In this document: piece after piece, positions 22,513 to 61,414 of the stretch | How positions within the stretch are numbered: the stretch's first letter is position 1 | Layout of the letters: each line of letters begins with the position of its first letter | Notes under the pieces: generated by a model | What the model was told of the DNA's origin: nothing | Database searches by the model: none | The model's input: only the letters and a program-made list of their open reading frames with translations | Assembly: GCF_003334385.1 (NCBI RefSeq) | Contig: NZ_QOWN01000016.1 | From: Escherichia coli | GTDB taxonomy: Bacteria > Pseudomonadota > Gammaproteobacteria > Enterobacterales > Enterobacteriaceae | DNA: 64,000 nucleotides | Direction: 5' to 3' (one strand) | Made by a program: the position numbers and the translations under genes

Positions 22513-23640
22513 TTAACGGCGTCTATAGCCTTCCTCTAGCACCGCCTGTGTTCGAACGAGTTCATCTGCGAGTCGTTTCTCATCAGGTAGTTGCATCTTA
22601 TATTCGCTTGCCAGAACGGTGTTAGGCAAACCTGCCAGAGCATAATGCGCTTCTCCGGCTCCTTTCTCTGCACAGAGAACCAGACCGATGGGCGGATTTT
22701 CATCCGGTAGCGTCCAGTGCTCTTTGGCGTAGTTGAGATACATATTCATCTGTCCGGCATCGCTATAGCTGAATTTGCCCACTTTTAGATCGACGATTAG
22801 CAGGCAGCGTAAACGGCGGTGGAAAAACAGCAGATCGACACGAAACCAGTTGTCATCAATGCGTAACCTTCGCTGCCGACCAACAAAGGCAAAATCATCC
22901 CCAAGTTCCAGCATGAAATCCATCAGGTGGTTGATCAGCGCCTCCTCAAAATCGGATTCTGAATATTCATCTTTCAATTCCAGAAATTCGAGCACAAAGG
23001 GATCGCGTATCGCCTGTTGCGGAAGAATATGCGTCTCGGCAGGAGCGTGTTGTTGCAGCATGGCTGATTTGTCATGTGACAGTAGTGTCCGCTCATAAAA
23101 CTGGGTCGCAATTTGCCGCTCTAGCTGGCGAACAGACCAGCCACAGCGGAGCGTCTCTTTTTCATAAAAGCTGCGGGCGTCAGCGTTTTTAACGGAAAGT
23201 AAACGGACGTAGGTGGACCTGGGCAAGGGGAAAGATTTGGCAGACAGCGTCTGCCAAATCTTTGCCGATGGGAATTCTGCAGACGGTGTCTGCGGAATTC
23301 CCAATGGTGTTAATTCGCCAGACATTGTCTGGCGAATTTCAACATGTTGAAAAAAGAGGTAAAAAAGCCTCATTTGGCGTAAGTTTTTTGCAGAGAACCC
23401 ACGCTTATACCTTAGACATAAATCCTTTGATAGTCGCTTGATTAGCTGCGCACCATACGCAGCCCTGGCCTCGCCACCTTGTTCAAATTCGACAATTCGT
23501 CGGCCAATTTCCTGGTACGTCGCGGTCATTAACGCGTTAACGCTACGTACCGTTTCCGTCCGGGCGCTATCGACCAGATGAATAATACCGTCGTGGATTT
23601 GCTGGTAGCCTGCTGTGGTTCCTTCTGAGAGCGATTCCAT
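22513..23640 (-). CDS. yhcG: YhcG, DUF1016-type protein with a predicted PDDEXK nuclease-like C-terminal region; function unknown
   Basis: 375 aa ORF convergent with nanQ; recognised as YhcG; the centre carries three in-frame 39 bp palindromic repeats (23231-23338). Confidence 0.8.
   Translation of the reverse strand: MESLSEGTTAGYQQIHDGIIHLVDSARTETVRSVNALMTATYQEIGRRIVEFEQGGEARAAYGAQLIKRLSKDLCLRYKRGFSAKNLRQMRLFYLFFQHVEIRQTMSGELTPLGIPQTPSAEFPSAKIWQTLSAKSFPLPRSTYVRLLSVKNADARSFYEKETLRCGWSVRQLERQIATQFYERTLLSHDKSAMLQQHAPAETHILPQQAIRDPFVLEFLELKDEYSESDFEEALINHLMDFMLELGDDFAFVGRQRRLRIDDNWFRVDLLFFHRRLRCLLIVDLKVGKFSYSDAGQMNMYLNYAKEHWTLPDENPPIGLVLCAEKGAGEAHYALAGLPNTVLASEYKMQLPDEKRLADELVRTQAVLEEGYRRR
23231..23338. 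repeat. Three tandem palindromic elements of the same family (copies 2-4), 39 bp period, inside the yhcG reading frame
   Basis: AAAGATTTGGCAGAC-agc-GTCTGCCAAATCTTT (perfect 15 bp arms), GGGAATTCTGCAGAC-ggt-GTCTGCGGAATTCCC (one mismatch), AATTCGCCAGAC-att-GTCTGGCGAATT (perfect 12 bp arms); centres 39 bp apart; the minus strand translates as ...RQTMSGELTPLGIPQTPSAEFPSAKIWQTLSAKSFP... within YhcG. Confidence 0.85.
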
Positions 23641-23824
23641 TATCTGTCCCTTTATATGGAGCTAAGTTGAATAATGGAATGAGCTATACTCTGGGGGGTG
23701 AGCACTGAACAATTAAGAACAGCGTATTACATTTACTTTCCCCAAGATATGCGAAGAGCTTTCCTGAAACATTAACCGATCGTATAAAACGAATGCCTGA
23801 TAGTACTCCTGTCCGGCATTGTTA

Positions 23825-24541
23825 TCACAAGTAGACTACGCTTATCACAGCTTTCCCATCAAGTTCGATTTTTTCTGAACCGCCTAAATCATTCGCGATA
23901 GATGCGCTCACCTGAAGCGGTATAATGGCGTTCGTTACAGGAGTTGGGGTTGTTTCACCTGGTTTTACAAAGGTGTAATAATAGCTTTGATCGACTGCAA
24001 GCGGATAAGCGGTGAGCGTTTGCCATGCTCTTTTTTGCCCTGTTATGACGGCATCTGCACCTGCTATTGATACAGCTAACGTCTGGCTACCATTGCTGGC
24101 ACTAATGTTGTTGCTATCAATTAACACGGCATAACTACCGATATTTTTATTATCTTTTGTTTTCCCTAAGCCGAATAAGCGCGTTGTCTGGCTAATATAA
24201 CCTCCGCCATTTAAGGTATATTTTACACCACTCTGACCCCCACTATCTTTTCCGGTGGTCATACTATCCATTCGTGTATCACGAGCGGTAATCGCAATGC
24301 TGGTAGCGGATTCGCAAGTTATAGTCATATTAATATTACGTGTTCCAATCTGTGTGTAGTGCTGCGTTGAAAGTCTATTGACTGAATGACTACCGAAGTT
24401 AACAACTCCGCCGTTGCTTAGTATTGGAGTACAAGCTGCAGCTTCCAGAGTCACCTTAACGTCAATTGATACTCTATCAGCGGCTTGCGCTGACATGGCA
24501 AAAAAGGCACTTCCGGCAATCAGTAATTTTACATTGTTCAT
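23825..24541 (-). CDS. yhcF: Secreted fimbrial-like protein YhcF (DUF1120 type)
   Basis: 238 aa with signal peptide MNNVKLLIAGSAFFAMSAQA; paralogous pattern to GltF (GxCTP...ITC); last gene of the chaperone-usher operon. Confidence 0.8.
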   Translation of the reverse strand: MNNVKLLIAGSAFFAMSAQAADRVSIDVKVTLEAAACTPILSNGGVVNFGSHSVNRLSTQHYTQIGTRNINMTITCESATSIAITARDTRMDSMTTGKDSGGQSGVKYTLNGGGYISQTTRLFGLGKTKDNKNIGSYAVLIDSNNISASNGSQTLAVSIAGADAVITGQKRAWQTLTAYPLAVDQSYYYTFVKPGETTPTPVTNAIIPLQVSASIANDLGGSEKIELDGKAVISVVYL

Positions 24542-25089
24542 TTTGCCTCCACCAGGACCGTCAGATTGCCTGTAATATCTGTCATGTCGGTTAGTTCCCC
24601 TTCATCCTTAAAAGCTGGAGCCATTGTCAGTGTGAGGCTAACGCTTTTACCGCTATCAATTACCACTTCTTGACCATTTTGCATAAACACCAGCCAATTA
24701 TTGGGGGAAGTACTAATTGATGCTGTTCCTGTGCTGCCCGGATTGTCATTTTTGCCACTGGCTAACGCCAGGTCGAGATTGTTACTACCTGAAAATGCAT
24801 CGCTGGCGATCAGATTTAATGAACCATTCGGGCCAAATCCAAATCCGTTGTTGGAAATATTAGCGGTATTCAACTGAACACGAATATGAGCGTCCTGATC
24901 GCATTGCATTACCAGCGTGATTGTTCTGTCTGCTAATTGTGTTGTTTTACCCCGGTCAACTTGGCGCATGGCAGCACTTCGTTTGCCATAGTCGATATTT
25001 TGTATGCTACTGGAGATATTACACTCTGCCTGAGCGGCCATGGCGAAGTTCAGCAGCAGGCATCCTGTTATTATCCGTTTCATTGGCAC
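24538..25089 (-). CDS. yhcE: Secreted fimbrial-like protein YhcE (DUF1120 type), apparently intact
   Basis: 183 aa with a signal peptide; start overlaps the yhcD stop by 10 nt. Confidence 0.75.
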   Translation of the reverse strand: MPMKRIITGCLLLNFAMAAQAECNISSSIQNIDYGKRSAAMRQVDRGKTTQLADRTITLVMQCDQDAHIRVQLNTANISNNGFGFGPNGSLNLIASDAFSGSNNLDLALASGKNDNPGSTGTASISTSPNNWLVFMQNGQEVVIDSGKSVSLTLTMAPAFKDEGELTDMTDITGNLTVLVEAK

Positions 25090-40462: not shown

Positions 40463-41187
40463 GTAAAAGCCGCTTAACGGTGTTTAGTTTCGTTCGCCGT
40501 TTTCTTTTGCGGTTAATGGTTGTCCTCGCCGTTTTCTGGGGCGGGGGCATCGCGTTGTTTAGCGTTGCGCCTGTTCCCTTCTCAGCGGTAATGGTCGAGC
40601 GACAGGTCAGCGCCTGGCTGCATGGCAATTTTCGTTACGTGGCACATTCTGACTGGGTCAGTATGGATCAAATCTCGCCGTGGATGGGACTGGCGGTGAT
40701 TGCCGCAGAAGATCAGAAATTTCCTGAGCACTGGGGCTTTGATGTCGCTTCCATTGAGAAAGCCCTGGCGCACAACGAGCGCAATGAAAACCGTATTCGC
40801 GGTGCTTCAACGATTTCTCAACAGACAGCCAAAAATCTCTTTTTATGGGATGGGCGTAGCTGGGTTCGAAAAGGGCTGGAAGCCGGATTAACGCTGGGGA
40901 TAGAAACGGTCTGGAGCAAAAAGCGTATCCTGACGGTTTACCTGAATATCGCCGAATTTGGCGACGGTGTGTTTGGCGTCGAAGCTGCGGCACAACGTTA
41001 TTTCCACAAACCCGCGAGCAAACTTACCCGGTCGGAAGCTGCATTACTGGCAGCTGTATTACCTAATCCACTTCGTTTCAAAGTCTCCTCGCCATCGGGC
41101 TACGTGCGTAGCCGTCAGGCGTGGATTTTACGGCAGATGTATCAGTTAGGCGGTGAGCCGTTTATGCAACAACACCAGCTGGATTAA
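40459..41187 (+). CDS. mtgA: Monofunctional peptidoglycan glycosyltransferase
   Basis: 242 aa with an N-terminal transmembrane segment; overlaps the elbB stop by 4 nt. Confidence 0.93.
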
Positions 41188-45598: not shown

Positions 45599-46324
45599 TC
45601 AGAGTCTGAAGTCTTCCCCAAGGTATACACGCTTAACGTGTTCGTCTTGTAAGATTTCTGTAGGCGTGCCGTGGGCGATCAAATGCCCCTGACTGACGAT
45701 ATAAGCGCGTTCACAAACCGCCAGTGTTTCACGCACGTTGTGGTCAGTGATCAGCACGCCCAGGCCGCTGTCGCGCAGGTGCTCAATGATGCGTTTAATG
45801 TCGATAACCGAGATCGGGTCAACCCCGGCAAACGGTTCGTCGAGCAGAATAAATTTCGGATTCGCAGCCAGTGCGCGGGCAATTTCTACACGGCGACGTT
45901 CACCCCCGGAGAGTGACTGCCCCATGCTGTCACGCAGGTGCTCAATGTGAAACTCTTCCATCAACTCGTTCGCGCGGTCTTCACGTTGTTCAGCAGACAA
46001 GTCGTCACGAATTTGCAGTACCGCCATCAGGTTATCGTAAACGCTGAGGCGACGGAAAATGGAGGCTTCCTGTGGCAGATAGCCGATACCGCGGCGCGCG
46101 CGTGCATGCAGAGGCAGCAGACTGATATCGTCATCATCAATAATGATGTTGCCCGCATCGCGCGGCACAATGCCTACAACCATGTAGAAAGTGGTGGTCT
46201 TACCGGCACCGTTTGGCCCCAGCAGACCGACAATTTCCCCGGAGTTGACGGTCAGGCTGACGTCTTCTACCACGCGACGGCCTTTATAGGCTTTTGCAAG
46301 GTTCTTTGCAGTTAATGTTGCCAT
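45599..46324 (-). CDS. lptB: LPS export ABC transporter ATPase LptB
   Basis: 241 aa with Walker [10 protein letters not shown] and ABC signature LSGGERRR. Confidence 0.96.
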
Positions 46325-46330
46325 AACGAA

Positions 46331-46888
46331 TTAATTACCCTTCTTCTGTGCCGGGGTCTGGCCTTTGTTGTTTTTGTCCTGCAGCTGCGACGGCACCAGA
46401 ACGGTTGTTACGCGCTTGCCTTTGTCGCTGAAAGCCTGCATTTTCTGCTCTTTCACCAGGTAAGTGATCTTATCGCCCTTAATGTTGCTATCGACCTGCT
46501 GCAGATAAGCATTACCCGTCAGAACGACAAAATCTTTTGCCAGTTCGTAGTGCATCTGGGAAGCGTGACCTTCAACGGGTTTACCGTTGTCCTGCATCTG
46601 GTAGAACGTTGCCGGTTTACCGTAGCCGTCAATCACTTCTTTACCTTGTTCGCCGCCCGGACGGGTAACGACCACTTTGTCGGCATTAATTTTGATGGTG
46701 CCCTGGGTGACGATGACATTACCGGTAAAGGTAACCACGTTGCCTTGCATATCAAGAGATTGCTGGTCCGATTCAATGTGGATCGGCTGATCAGTGTCTC
46801 CGGTTACGGCAAATGCCGGAATGCTGGCGGCCAGAAGTGAGCTGGCAAGCACAAGATTAAGGCTGAGTTTGTTTGTTTTGAATTTCAT
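46331..46888 (-). CDS. lptA: Periplasmic LPS transport protein LptA
   Basis: 185 aa from MKFKTNKLSLNLV (signal peptide); start overlaps the 3' end of lptC by 32 nt. Confidence 0.93.
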   Translation of the reverse strand: MKFKTNKLSLNLVLASSLLAASIPAFAVTGDTDQPIHIESDQQSLDMQGNVVTFTGNVIVTQGTIKINADKVVVTRPGGEQGKEVIDGYGKPATFYQMQDNGKPVEGHASQMHYELAKDFVVLTGNAYLQQVDSNIKGDKITYLVKEQKMQAFSDKGKRVTTVLVPSQLQDKNNKGQTPAQKKGN

Positions 46889-47432
46889 AGGATGTTCTAA
46901 CCTTTTCAATCAGCTCGGCGTTCTTGCTGCGTAAGTTGCCGCGCATTTTCAGACCGCTGGAGTTAAATGTTGTTCCGTATAACGTGACGAGGTCTTCAGA
47001 GGTAACATCCTGCGTCACCAGATTGATCTGCGCGTTATCCGTCGTGATTCTGCGAAGTTGAGAGTCTGGCACAAGTGCGTTGACTTCAACGTGTCCATAT
47101 AAATAGAGCATCCGGTCATTGGTCAGCTTGGCTTTATCTGCTTTTACGGACCATGTCGGGATTTTATCCTTATCAAACGTGGTAAGTACCGGCTGCGTAA
47201 ACCACGAAACGGCCTGATCGGAATAATATTCAACGTGTTGAGCAATCAATCGATAGCTTAGTGCCCCTTCTGGGTTATAGACGAGCGTGTCCGTATGCTC
47301 GCTTTTATAGGTGGGATCATTGTTGTTGACGACCACCTGGGCGGTATCGTCTTTTTCGGCCATATTAATGCCGATCATCACCAGAACCGCCAGTGATAGC
47401 ACAATGATAACCCAACGTCTGGCTTTACTCAT
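46857..47432 (-). CDS. lptC: LPS transport inner-membrane protein LptC
   Basis: 191 aa with an N-terminal transmembrane anchor; overlaps the kdsC stop. Confidence 0.93.
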   Translation of the reverse strand: MSKARRWVIIVLSLAVLVMIGINMAEKDDTAQVVVNNNDPTYKSEHTDTLVYNPEGALSYRLIAQHVEYYSDQAVSWFTQPVLTTFDKDKIPTWSVKADKAKLTNDRMLYLYGHVEVNALVPDSQLRRITTDNAQINLVTQDVTSEDLVTLYGTTFNSSGLKMRGNLRSKNAELIEKVRTSYEIQNKQTQP

Positions 47433-47995
47433 ATCGATTGCCCTTTGGCTTCATCCAGTTTGCCCTGCGCCAGGAGTAATAAGTCGCAAACTTCGCGCAC
47501 TGCGCCACGACCGCCAGCAATGCGCGTCACGTAATCGGCGCGCGGGATCAACAGTGGATGCGCATCGGCCACGGCGACGCTTAAACCCACTTTTTCCATT
47601 ACCGGCCAGTCGATGAGATCATCGCCGACATAAGCCACATTTTCCGGGGCAATCGCCAGTTTTTCCAGCAGATCGCTAAAGGCGATCAGTTTGTTTGACT
47701 GCCCCTGATACAAGTGAGTGATCCCCAATGTGGCACAACGATCTTCTACCAGTTTAGCCTTTCGCCCGGTAATGATAGCGACTTCAATATCAGAGGTGAG
47801 CGCACAACGAATGCCATAACCGTCACGAACATTGAACGCTTTCAGCTCTTCGCCATTATTGCCCATATAAATCAGGCCATCTGACAGTACGCCATCGACA
47901 TCGAGGATCAGCAGACGAATGTTCTCTGCTTTTGCTATAACGTCGGCGCTGACAGGGCCGTAACAGGTCGCAAGCGACGCACCTGCTTTGCTCAT
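47429..47995 (-). CDS. kdsC: KDO-8-phosphate phosphatase
   Basis: 188 aa HAD-like protein (DVDGVLSDG); recognised as KdsC. Confidence 0.93.
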   Translation of the reverse strand: MSKAGASLATCYGPVSADVIAKAENIRLLILDVDGVLSDGLIYMGNNGEELKAFNVRDGYGIRCALTSDIEVAIITGRKAKLVEDRCATLGITHLYQGQSNKLIAFSDLLEKLAIAPENVAYVGDDLIDWPVMEKVGLSVAVADAHPLLIPRADYVTRIAGGRGAVREVCDLLLLAQGKLDEAKGQSI

Positions 47996-48015
47996 TGTTG
48001 TTTATCCTTGAATCT

Positions 48016-49002
48016 TTACACTACGCCTGCACGCAGTAAATCATGCATATGTAACACACCGAGTAAATGGTCGCCATCGGCAACCATCACGGAGGTGATA
48101 TGGCGGGACTGCATTAAGTTCAGTGCCTCAACGGCCAGAATGCCAGGGCGCACACGTATTCCCCCCGGCGTCATCACATCGGCAATACTTAACTGACGAA
48201 CATCCACGCCCATATCGAAGACACGGCGTAAATCACCGTCGGTAAAGATGCCTTCAATCATCATATTGTCATCGCAAATGACAGTCATACCAAGATTTTT
48301 GCGGGTAACTTCCAGCAACGCGTCACGCAGACTGGCCGTTTTCTTAACATGCGGGATCTCATCGCCCGTATGCATAATATCGTTTACGCGCAGCAGAAGT
48401 TTACGACCCAGTGCGCCGCCTGGGTGTGAGAGCGCAAAATCTTCAGCAGTAAAGCCGCGTGCTTTTAACAGCGCGACAGCGAGGGCATCGCCCATAACCA
48501 GCGTGGCGGTGGTGCTGCTGGTCGGTGCCAGCCCTAACGGACAGGCTTCTTTCGCTACTTTAACACACAGATGCACATCTGCGGCGCGCGCCATGCTGCT
48601 CTCCGGGCGACCGGTGATGCAGATTAACGGTACGTGAAGACGCTTAAGCACTGGAATTAAGGCCGTGATTTCGCTGGATTCACCAGAGTTAGAGATAGCA
48701 ATCACCACATCCTGTGGGGTAACCATGCCTAAATCACCATGCGCGGCTTCACCAGGATGGACGAAAAATGAAGGTGTACCGGTGCTGGCAAACGTTGCCG
48801 CCATTTTTCGCCCAATATGCCCCGATTTTCCCATCCCCATGACGACAACTTTCCCTTTACACCAGAACATCTTTTCACAGGCAAGCGTGAAATTCTGATT
48901 GATGTATTGATCAAGCTCCGCCAGGCATTCACGTTCAATCGCCAGGACTTCTTTACCTGCTTGCTGAAAGTCAAAACCCGGTTGTAACTCTACGTGCGAC
49001 AT
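48016..49002 (-). CDS. kdsD: D-arabinose-5-phosphate isomerase
   Basis: 328 aa from MSHVELQPGFDFQQAGKEV with SIS and tandem CBS domains; the track ORF is over-extended by 7 codons. Confidence 0.93.
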   Translation of the reverse strand: MSHVELQPGFDFQQAGKEVLAIERECLAELDQYINQNFTLACEKMFWCKGKVVVMGMGKSGHIGRKMAATFASTGTPSFFVHPGEAAHGDLGMVTPQDVVIAISNSGESSEITALIPVLKRLHVPLICITGRPESSMARAADVHLCVKVAKEACPLGLAPTSSTTATLVMGDALAVALLKARGFTAEDFALSHPGGALGRKLLLRVNDIMHTGDEIPHVKKTASLRDALLEVTRKNLGMTVICDDNMMIEGIFTDGDLRRVFDMGVDVRQLSIADVMTPGGIRVRPGILAVEALNLMQSRHITSVMVADGDHLLGVLHMHDLLRAGVV

Positions 49003-49015
49003 AATGCGTTTCCAG

Positions 49016-49993
49016 TTATTCAACGAGTATTGGCGATAACCAGTACAACATCGCCAGCCATACGATAAATCCGCCAGTTAATAATACCCCTACACCACGG
49101 CCCGGTTGCGGGGAGCGCCGCCAGCACAGCAACGCAAAAATAATGCTCACCAGCAACATCACGCTGTAGTCACGACTGTACGCCAGTGGATCAATCTCTC
49201 CTGGCGTTATCAGCGCGGGTAAACCCAACACGATGACAATATTAAAAATGTTTGCGCCAATGATATTTCCGACAGCAATGTCGTTTTCACCTTTGCGAAC
49301 CCCCGCTATTGCGGTTGCCAGTTCCGGCAGGCTGGTTCCGATAGCAATTGCCGTCAGACCCATCGTCAACTCGCTGATGGCAAAGTAATTCGCCAGCACC
49401 GTGGCGTTATCAACCACCATCCGCGTGGCCACTGGCATGATGATAAGCGCAATGCCGAGCCATAAAAACGCGACGGGCAATCCGCCGTCACGCGGCAGCT
49501 CTGCAAGCTGCTCTCTGGTCAGGCTGTCAGTCCCCTGACGTTCAGCCTGACGTGCAAGTTTAACAATGAACAGCAGCCATAGCACAGCCAGAAAGAGGAG
49601 AAAGATACCATCGCTGCGACTAAGTTGTCCGTCATAGAGTACGGAACCGGCCACCACGCTGACCAACAACATTAAGGGTAATTCACGGCGTAGAACATCA
49701 GAATGGACGGTAAAAGGACGAACCAGCGCAGCCAGACCGAGGATCAGCAATATATTGATAATGTTTGAGCCGAGGGCTGTACCAACGGCTAAATCGCGTT
49801 GTTCGTGCAGAGACGCGGCAAGCGAGACGATGACTTCTGGTAACGATGTACCAATACTGACCACCGTCATGCCGATGATCAGCGGCGGGATGCCAAAGGT
49901 TCGGCAAAGAATAGACGCGGCAAAAACCAGGCGGTCGGCACTGTAAACGACCAAAAGTAAACCAACAATTAACAGTGCCGTAGCTAAAAGCAT
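49016..49993 (-). CDS. yrbG: CaCA-family cation antiporter YrbG
   Basis: 325 aa polytopic membrane protein with duplicated GTSLPE alpha-repeats. Confidence 0.9.
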   Translation of the reverse strand: MLLATALLIVGLLLVVYSADRLVFAASILCRTFGIPPLIIGMTVVSIGTSLPEVIVSLAASLHEQRDLAVGTALGSNIINILLILGLAALVRPFTVHSDVLRRELPLMLLVSVVAGSVLYDGQLSRSDGIFLLFLAVLWLLFIVKLARQAERQGTDSLTREQLAELPRDGGLPVAFLWLGIALIIMPVATRMVVDNATVLANYFAISELTMGLTAIAIGTSLPELATAIAGVRKGENDIAVGNIIGANIFNIVIVLGLPALITPGEIDPLAYSRDYSVMLLVSIIFALLCWRRSPQPGRGVGVLLTGGFIVWLAMLYWLSPILVE

Positions 49994-61305: not shown

Positions 61306-61414
61306 AATCTCGCGCTAACAACCTGGAATCGAGCCGTCATACTACGGCGCAACGCCCTATAAAGTAAACGATGACCCTTCGGGAACTTCAGGGTAAAATG
61401 ACTATCAAAATGTG

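Follow-up and report, generated by a model that had tools for sequence, protein, structure and literature searches.

The yrbG-lptB (yrbG-yhbG) operon of Escherichia coli was reportedly described by Sperandeo et al. in 2006, Martorana et al. in 2011 and Benedet et al. in 2016. Its six genes are co-transcribed from a strong promoter, yrbGp, and the minor promoters lptAp1 (sigma-E dependent) and lptAp2 lie inside lptC (PMC4986956). When lptC is untranscribed, lptAB is expressed from lptAp1 and lptAp2, and plasmid-borne lptA alone complements (PMC4986956, PMC8727689, PMC4072712). All six distances of the operon are tabulated (PMC10666635 Table S2). For the overlap of lptC and lptA, the literature gives 32 nt (PMC4986956) and a distance of -32 (PMC10666635 Table S2).

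For coupling by termination-reinitiation (TeRe), Huber et al. treated distances of -8 to +10 nt as predictive; TeRe was down by 40-80% at +14 nt, and abolished or down by 80-90% at +38 nt (PMC10666635). On the overlapping side, re-initiation declines linearly beyond an overlap of -10 nt, and Tian & Salis gave an overlap of at least 25 nt to prevent it (PMC4538824). A review also reports a loss of re-initiation as overlaps approach 25 nt (PMC12548453), a rule of ~25 nt that comes from synthetic reporters.

The Lpt machine is essential and an antibiotic target, which makes the control of its subunit ratios a matter of real interest. An earlier note on this DNA had read the tight packing of the chain as implying translational coupling and stoichiometric control of the lipopolysaccharide (LPS) transport bridge. 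Proximity alone does not establish either of these.

The operon and its junctions

The window (the whole stretch of E. coli DNA analysed, 64 kb) holds the six genes on the minus strand as intact open reading frames with ATG starts, as determined by a script on the window. The genes are listed with the bit scores and cutoffs of their NCBIfam equivalog models, followed by the junctions.

49016-49993, minus strand: yrbG, operon gene 1, calcium/sodium antiporter family, intact frame of 325 aa (RefSeq; NF008005, 608 bits vs cutoff 432)
48016-49002, minus strand: kdsD, arabinose-5-phosphate isomerase, 328 aa (NF008141, 697 bits vs cutoff 505)
47429-47995, minus strand: kdsC, Kdo-8-phosphate phosphatase, 188 aa (NF007019, 353 bits vs cutoff 208)
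46857-47432, minus strand: lptC, inner-membrane-anchored periplasmic LPS transport protein, 191 aa (NF008142, 364 bits vs cutoff 230)
46331-46888, minus strand: lptA, periplasmic LPS bridge protein with signal peptide, 185 aa (NF008143, 368 bits vs cutoff 234)
45599-46324, minus strand: lptB, LPS export ABC ATPase, 241 aa (NF008144, 539 bits vs cutoff 381)
49003-49015, minus strand: yrbG-kdsD spacer, 13 nt, weak Shine-Dalgarno match (duplex -3.3 kcal/mol)
47996-48015, minus strand: kdsD-kdsC spacer, 20 nt, with AAGGA Shine-Dalgarno (duplex -5.2 kcal/mol, spacing 8)
47429-47432, minus strand: kdsC/lptC start/stop overlap ATGA (-4), script on window
46857-46888, minus strand: lptC/lptA overlap, 32 nt, covering LptC Y182 (part) to P191 plus stop and LptA M1 to N11 (part)
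46325-46330, minus strand: lptA-lptB spacer, 6 nt, script on window

All six products scored above the curated cutoffs of their models. The gene order, which continues with rpoN-hpf-ptsN, matches the known Enterobacteriaceae operon and was found again in 80 enteric genomes and in three distant loci (L085, L086 and L094). In sequence, the region matches E. coli K-12 MG1655 at 100% identity, and it is present in 5426 of 5426 complete E. coli genomes. The RefSeq CDS coordinates of MG1655 gave the same gene bounds and distances as the window frames. Hence, the locus is the well-studied K-12 operon, from whose published form it does not differ in sequence, gene order or junctions, and nothing realistic would overturn this identity. 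The earlier note had the gene identities and distances right; the range it quoted, 46331-49993, omits lptB, which its text names. Locus, junctions and promoters are already published, and what it observed is ordinary and already known.

From yrbG to lptB, the distances were +13, +20, -4, -32 and +6, followed by +47 to rpoN. They agree with the published values (PMC10666635 Table S2; 32 nt in PMC4986956), and the five that had been quoted earlier (13, 20, an overlap of 4, an overlap of 32, and 6) were exact according to both the window script and RefSeq MG1655.

In itself, tight packing is nothing unusual here. Of the 47 pairs of co-directional neighbours in the window, 23 were at most 20 nt apart and nine overlapped. 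The neighbouring mlaFEDCB, also an envelope-lipid transport operon, has equally tight junctions (+7, +4, +18 and -1), so compaction is the norm in this region. Unlike lptC/lptA, however, mlaFEDCB has no long overlap. The 32 nt shared by lptC and lptA formed the sole overlap above 8 nt among the co-directional pairs of the window, and "unusually long" was a fair description, judged from this sample and from published statistics.

One promoter-like motif was found in lptC:

46949-46976, minus strand: candidate sigma-E promoter, GGAACAA-N16-TCTGA, 61-88 nt 5' of the lptA ATG, motif match

The pattern GGAAC-N18-TCTGA matched once in the 64-kb window, inside lptC, with 0.04 matches expected by chance. 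The exact motif occurs in only 4 of 79 enteric genomes. It is possibly the published lptAp1, judging by the motif and its place. The strict sigma-E pattern GAACTT-N15-18-TCNNA had no match in lptC, and a sigma-E search with three mismatches was no better than chance (50 matches vs 55 expected). A generic sigma-70 scan of the operon returned 2 promoter-like sites vs 6.9 expected, and a terminator scan returned 10 consensus-like sites vs 6.9 expected from shuffles (sd 2.6), which is no excess over chance.

Translational coupling along the chain

Only kdsC/lptC (-4) and lptA/lptB (+6) lie within the range of -8 to +10 nt. Both are alike in distance to the TeRe pairs with -4 or -1 overlaps (Huber et al. 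2019, 2023), and coupling read from proximity fits the TeRe range at these two junctions. KdsC and LptC are not complex partners, unlike the coupled subunit pairs of the Huber type. The spacers yrbG/kdsD (+13) and kdsD/kdsC (+20) fall outside the range, in the band that Huber et al. set aside as variable, and fit poorly; reporter data show a strong loss from +14 to +20 nt, with coupling down by 40-80% or nearly gone. The lptC/lptA overlap (-32) also lies outside the range of -8 to +10 nt. As re-initiation disappears once overlaps reach some 25 nt, the 32 nt argue against coupling, and it would be wrong to take the long overlap as support for it.

The earlier note had itself named independent initiation at lptA as the observation that would speak against its reading. 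The expression of lptAB when lptC is not transcribed, together with the complementation by plasmid-borne lptA, points to essentially this. Dependence of lptA on upstream translation of lptC is at most partial.

Ribosome densities (Burkhardt 2017, PMC5318159; a filtered table without lptC and yrbG) were 90.6 for kdsD, 131.3 for kdsC, 214.2 for lptA and 171.2 for lptB. In the same order, mRNA levels were 156, 181, 232 and 203, and translation efficiencies were 0.58, 0.73, 0.92 and 0.84 (PMC5318159). The densities span a 2.4-fold range along the chain, which means that the output is not equimolar. Moreover, yrbG, kdsD and kdsC do not encode Lpt subunits, and the genes for LptD/E/F/G lie outside this operon. 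That the chain controls the stoichiometry of the bridge does not follow from its packing.

We consider it very probable that this is a compact polycistronic operon in which several layers of control, rather than a single chain of translational coupling, determine expression, with lptA translated mainly de novo. According to published work, the promoter yrbGp drives the polycistron, and lptAp1 and lptAp2 add transcripts for lptA and lptB from within lptC. Some termination-reinitiation may take place at the -4 and +6 junctions, and kdsD and kdsC would start from ordinary ribosome-binding sites in their spacers. For lptA, de novo initiation would mainly use a region that is conserved, A-rich, weakly structured and embedded in the last lptC codons. 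It is more probable that the 32-nt overlap reflects independent translation of lptA than that ribosomes are handed over from lptC.

It is improbable that, instead, the whole chain is coupled, lptC to lptA included, so that a restart at each gene fixes the Lpt stoichiometry, with a backward scan after the lptC stop. Older phage work reportedly described limited backward scanning to restart codons. Every junction is overlapping or at most 20 nt long, but coupling is already weak across spacers of +13 and +20 (PMC10666635). LptC, LptA and LptB are parts of a single machine, Huber et al. mark lptC/lptA and lptA/lptB as subunit pairs of a complex in their table, and complex subunits are enriched in short overlaps (PMC10666635); yet the same chain carries three genes for non-Lpt proteins, and LptD/E/F/G are unlinked (PMC4986956). 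The strong conservation of -4, -32 and +6 would suit coupling at each of these junctions, whereas re-initiation is lost as the overlap nears 25 nt or more (PMC4538824, PMC12548453). A weak Shine-Dalgarno match at lptA would also be expected, but lptA and lptB are expressed without lptC transcription (PMC4986956, PMC8727689, PMC4072712). Finally, ribosome densities that differ 2.4-fold and mRNA that rises distally (PMC5318159) do not suit a restart at each gene.

Conservation and origin of the lptC/lptA overlap

The comparison set comprised 80 Enterobacteriaceae species genomes. By count, the -32 was kept in 77 of 80; one of the 77 has an earlier in-frame TAA and an overlap of 20 nt, so the true value is 76 of 80. 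The -4 of kdsC/lptC was kept in 77 of 79 genomes and the +6 of lptA/lptB in 79 of 80. Conservation of the exact distances -32, -4 and +6 is far above chance. In most of 74 Enterobacteriaceae genomes, the yrbG-kdsD spacer measured between 9 and 16 nt, and the kdsD-kdsC spacer had lengths of 13-31 nt over the genomes compared.

Around the lptA start, an alignment of 76 distinct sequences was nearly invariant:

46857-46915, minus strand: -27 to +32 around the lptA ATG, an almost invariant stretch comprising the lptA translation-initiation region and the dual-coding overlap

The third-position entropy of lptC dropped from ~1.2 bits to 0.3-0.4 bits in this block, the lowest of all 21-codon windows of lptC, and the collapse of synonymous-site entropy spans the last ~30 lptC codons. 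Within the overlap, 17 distinct sequences encoded 17 different LptA N-termini, and the LptC tail YEIQNKQTQP was unchanged in 12 of them.

Distant lineages were sampled one at a time, as a search with a four-sequence LptA alignment returned Enterobacteriaceae only. Their lptC/lptA overlaps measured 14-23 nt. The lptA ATG lies within TAT-GAA in six of the seven overlapping lineages and within AAT-GAA in the seventh. This sample agrees with the published LptC>LptA distances for 364 genomes, which have their median at -14 and their lower quartile at -23 (PMC10666635 Table S4); the 32 nt of E. coli lie beyond the lower quartile of their own gene-family pair. When that table is ordered by increasing median distance, LptC>LptA ranks eleventh from the top. 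Other long-overlap pairs in it (Huber 2023) are the type VI secretion protein VasA with its neighbour (median -37) and EcfA2/EcfA2 (median -15), and KdsC>LptC has a cross-phylum median of -4. The LptC>LptA pair is tabulated in PMC10666635, where we noticed no discussion of it.

The recurrence of the ATG within the Tyr-Glu codons of LptC in distant lineages shows that the overlap is old, and it is longest in the enterics. It reaches 32 nt there owing to an eight-residue tail that follows Tyr-Glu in LptC. The core model TIGR04409 stops at Y182 of LptC, and the core model TIGR03002 starts at residue 28 of LptA. The overlap thus brings together an LptC tail that lies past the core family model and the charged n-region of the LptA signal peptide. 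As this n-region tolerates substitutions, a long overlap is affordable, and the pairing explains why long overlaps are habitually tolerated in the lptC-lptA pair. We did not find these comparative additions (-32, -4 and +6 in 80 enteric species, the ATG in LptC Tyr-Glu, the frame under selection) stated in the literature consulted.

A different view of the overlap takes it as an insulator or interference device, in which ribosomes ending lptC occlude the lptA start and so uncouple or anticorrelate LptA and LptC; we regard this as improbable. The overlap does exceed the reporter limit for re-initiation (PMC4538824), and lptC>lptA is among the most negative gene-family pairs over 364 genomes (PMC10666635). 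The exact geometry is conserved in the enterics, with the block from -27 to +32 nearly invariant, but dual coding and an embedded ribosome-binding site explain this conservation more simply. Moreover, overlap lengths of 14, 17, 20, 23 and 32 nt were recorded, one lineage has no overlap (L095, +14) and another is rearranged (L090), so no set length is required. There is little likelihood that the embedded ATG in Tyr-Glu and the lineage-tuned overlap form a selected device that insulates LptA synthesis from LptC translation by occlusion. If they did, the amount of LptA, here the bridge subunit whose abundance indicates how bridge assembly proceeds, would depend on the LPS-stress-responsive internal promoters instead of on read-through of the operon.

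The lptA start site

The lptA ATG lies inside the LptC codons Tyr182-Glu183 (tATGaa). The RNA fold of the start region was no different from that of shuffled sequence (z = -1.0), and an Rfam search for known RNA elements gave no hit at E <= 1. In vivo, the DMS Gini from -20 to +40 was lowest for lptA, at 0.317 (PMC5318159). A model of coupling by the melting of an inhibitory structure was dropped on this fold score and the low Gini value.

The Shine-Dalgarno match of lptA is weak (-3.4 kcal/mol, spacing 11). Some would take this to mean that lptA relies on ribosomes arriving from upstream, which counts against de novo initiation, as does a contribution of coupling that may exist on the full-length native mRNA.

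By its conservation, the annotated start that defines the 32-nt overlap is sound. It is highly improbable that the annotation is an artefact and that lptA truly starts, without the long overlap, at the GTG of codon 13 or at another codon: gene callers do not place the start alike in every genome (there are LptA entries of 191-197 aa), the starts they chose for L089 and L093 look questionable, and the GTG lies 4 nt past the lptC stop in E. coli, but a start-type codon is present there in only 31 of 80 genomes vs the ATG in 80 of 80, the GTG has no Shine-Dalgarno match (duplex +1.2 kcal/mol), a start there would lose the Lys/Arg-rich n-region (net charge of residues 2-11 from +2 to +4 in all 80 genomes), and the layout of an ATG in Tyr-Glu is found again in distant lineages. 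The GTG was rejected as a start on its poor conservation. An in-frame TTG at -21 was likewise rejected, as a stop codon lies between the TTG and the ATG in six genomes. The seven-residue extension from this TTG varies freely, with 19 variants vs 4 in the lptC frame.

Operon layout and junction distances

On the minus strand, 45599–49993 comprises six intact ORFs, each with an ATG start:

49016–49993, minus strand, yrbG
48016–49002, minus strand, kdsD
47429–47995, minus strand, kdsC
46857–47432, minus strand, lptC
46331–46888, minus strand, lptA
45599–46324, minus strand, lptB

The range in the earlier note (46331–49993) covered yrbG to lptA but ended at 46331 and omitted lptB. RefSeq gene coordinates agreed with the ORFs of the window, and all six products exceeded the curated cutoffs of NCBIfam equivalog models. 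E. coli K-12 MG1655 was 100% identical over the operon stretch, which was found in every complete E. coli genome searched (5426 of 5426).

The stop-to-start distances along the six genes (positive for spacers, negative for overlaps) were +13, +20, −4 (ATGA), −32 and +6, and rpoN lay 47 nt beyond lptB. According to the ORF coordinates and RefSeq, all five previously claimed distances were exact. They were already known, as was the 32-nt overlap: Benedet et al. describe the overlap as well as a strong promoter, yrbGp, and two minor ones within lptC, lptAp1 (sigma-E) and lptAp2 (PMC4986956), and in the E. coli table of Huber et al. 2023 the pairs stand at 13, 20, −4, −32, 6 and 47 nt. The cross-species table gives medians of −4 for KdsC>LptC, +5 for LptA>LptB and −14 for LptC>LptA (quartiles −23 and +1, 364 genomes), the last being in the eleventh row of a table sorted from the most negative median upward (PMC10666635). 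The junctions and the overlap have thus been described before, in an envelope operon that is among the best studied; the anatomy of the overlap is new detail on it.

Tight gene packing is ordinary in the window: of its 47 pairs of co-directional neighbours, 23 have a distance of ≤20 nt and 9 have overlapping ends. The adjoining mla operon is similarly tight (+7, +4, +18 and −1). The description of the lptC/lptA overlap as unusually long held, since it is the only overlap >8 nt among the co-directional pairs of the window. Separately, mtgA (plus strand) and yrbL (minus strand) are convergent, with 3' ends overlapping by 4 nt (41184–41187).

The exact geometry of three junctions was strongly conserved: lptC/lptA was −32 in 77 of 80 genomes (one of the 77 has an earlier in-frame stop, giving −20), kdsC/lptC was −4 in 77 of 79 and lptA/lptB was +6 in 79 of 80. 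Drifting spacers were found between yrbG and kdsD (9–16 nt), kdsD and kdsC (13–31 nt) and lptB and rpoN (45–226 nt). In two genomes (loci L064 and L071), an earlier lptC stop cut the overlap to 17 nt. L071 (CACSKA010000008.1) carries a Chryseobacterium label, but the locus is of the Enterobacteriaceae type with an LptA identity of 81%, which suggests that the assembly is mislabelled or contaminated. In Entomohabitans teleogrylli (L058, NZ_KQ947378.1), the lptC stop TAA reads TCA, and the lptC ORF is 714 nt long with a 170-nt lptA overlap; this is either a genuine tail extension or a sequencing error.

Anatomy and age of the lptC/lptA overlap

The DNA from −27 to +32 around the lptA ATG was nearly invariant among 76 distinct enteric sequences. 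Third-position entropy in lptC fell from about 1.2–1.3 bits to 0.3–0.6 bits over the last ~30 codons, and at the 3' end it was below that of every other 21-codon window of the gene. Synonymous-site entropy in the first 10 lptC codons (47403–47432) was 0.44 bits versus about 1.2–1.3 in the gene body, which fits a constraint on the lptC initiation region and on the overlap with kdsC.

The 17 distinct overlap sequences encode 17 different LptA N-termini. The LptC tail YEIQNKQTQP was unchanged in 12 of the 17, and the common substitutions (LptA F3S/Y, K4R, T5I, L8R/H and L10R), non-synonymous in lptA, are all synonymous in lptC. The lptC frame thus bears the stronger constraint. The overlapped lptA segment is the substitution-tolerant n-region of the LptA signal peptide. 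In all 80 genomes, the net charge of LptA residues 2–11 was between +2 and +4, as the n-region of a Sec signal peptide should have. TIGR04409, the family-wide model for LptC, stops at Y182, and TIGR03002, the one for LptA, starts at residue 28; the overlap falls outside both conserved cores.

In distant lineages (LptA 34–53% identical), the six-gene order was often retained. The overlaps as called were 14, 14, 20, 20 and 23 nt; two more loci, called at 8 and 44 nt, have an ATG in the homologous position that makes the overlap 17 nt. The ATG lay within the LptC Tyr-Glu codons (tATGaa) in six of the seven overlapping lineages and within Asn-Glu codons in the remaining one. One lineage had a +14 spacer and no overlap. 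In a small-genome organism (L090; GCA_900016775.1, LN890288.1, a 650-kb contig), the order was kdsC-lptC-lptB-lptA, the reverse of E. coli for lptA and lptB; the genes do not overlap, and the spacers measure about 150 and 190 nt. The embedded lptA start is old. Overlap length follows the number of LptC residues after Tyr-Glu, and enterics have the longest such tail (8 residues). The long overlap could possibly act as a regulatory insulator or occlusion device, although its length differs across lineages, which speaks against a need for any one length.

Coupling and initiation at lptA

The earlier note proposed that successive genes are translationally coupled, fixing the stoichiometry of the LPS transport bridge. 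This reading is supported in part. Coupling along the full chain is disfavoured, but on the native full-length mRNA it may contribute. In native E. coli pairs, termination-reinitiation was down 40–80% at +14 nt and was cut by 80–90% or abolished at +38 nt, and Huber et al. give −8 to +10 as the predictive coupling range (PMC10666635). Only kdsC/lptC (−4) and lptA/lptB (+6) are within this range, and KdsC is an enzyme rather than a subunit of Lpt; lptC/lptA and the +13 and +20 junctions are outside. Tian & Salis reported that re-initiation declines linearly past an overlap of −10 nt and advised overlaps ≥25 nt to prevent it (PMC4538824; review, PMC12548453). Because re-initiation is lost at such lengths in reporters, the 32-nt overlap counts against a hand-over from lptC to lptA. 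Moreover, lptAB expression persists when lptC is silent: in araBp-lptC strains without arabinose, it still comes from the promoter inside lptC, and plasmid-borne lptA alone complements (PMC4986956, PMC8727689, PMC4072712).

Ribosome output was also uneven. In a published table, ribosome densities were 90.6 (kdsD), 131.3 (kdsC), 214.2 (lptA) and 171.2 (lptB), and mRNA levels were 156, 181, 232 and 203, respectively; the filtered density table lacks lptC and yrbG and covers these four genes rather than LptC:LptA (PMC5318159). Operon output is not equimolar and rises distally, as expected of internal promoters and gene-specific efficiencies, which speaks against stoichiometric control. Among the operon genes in the published table, lptA had the lowest in vivo DMS Gini at its start (0.317) and the top translation efficiency (0.92). 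Its start region is A-rich with a weak Shine-Dalgarno match, and neither significant predicted structure (z = −1.0) nor an Rfam match was found there. Most likely, the junctions do not form one coupled chain.

The motif GGAAC-N18-TCTGA had a single match in the whole window (0.04 expected by chance), at 46949–46976 inside lptC. It is a candidate for the published sigma-E promoter of lptA, an assignment that is tentative because the exact motif is retained in only 4 of 79 enteric genomes. Transcription from it would begin some 54 nt before the lptA ATG, and lptA on such a transcript could be translated only by de novo initiation. A sigma-70-like match (ATGACT-17-TATGAT; 48260–48288, minus strand), the only consensus match on the operon strand, lies inside kdsD about 265 nt upstream of kdsC; it carries no weight, as the scan yielded 2 sites versus 6.9 expected, below chance. 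The window's only zero-mismatch sigma-E consensus (GGAACTT-N16-TCAAA; 61382–61409, plus strand) precedes the start of greA (61553), a gene with a sigma-E-dependent promoter, by about 144 nt.

The lptA start codon

The lptA start was checked across 80 Enterobacteriaceae species genomes because the 32-nt figure rests on it. A mis-annotated start, which would make the long overlap unreal, is rejected: the ATG was kept in all 80, and only 31 have a start-type codon at position 13 (GTG in E. coli, 4 nt beyond the lptC stop). In 6 genomes, a stop codon intervenes between the ATG and the in-frame TTG 21 nt upstream; the extension of 7 residues from this TTG varies freely (19 variants), whereas the lptC reading of these bases is conserved (4 variants). 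The annotated start holds, and the 32-nt overlap is real.

Elsewhere in the window, an IS5 element (23339–25083; transposase CDS 23586–24566, plus strand) divides yhcE into two pseudogene fragments, a known K-12 feature.
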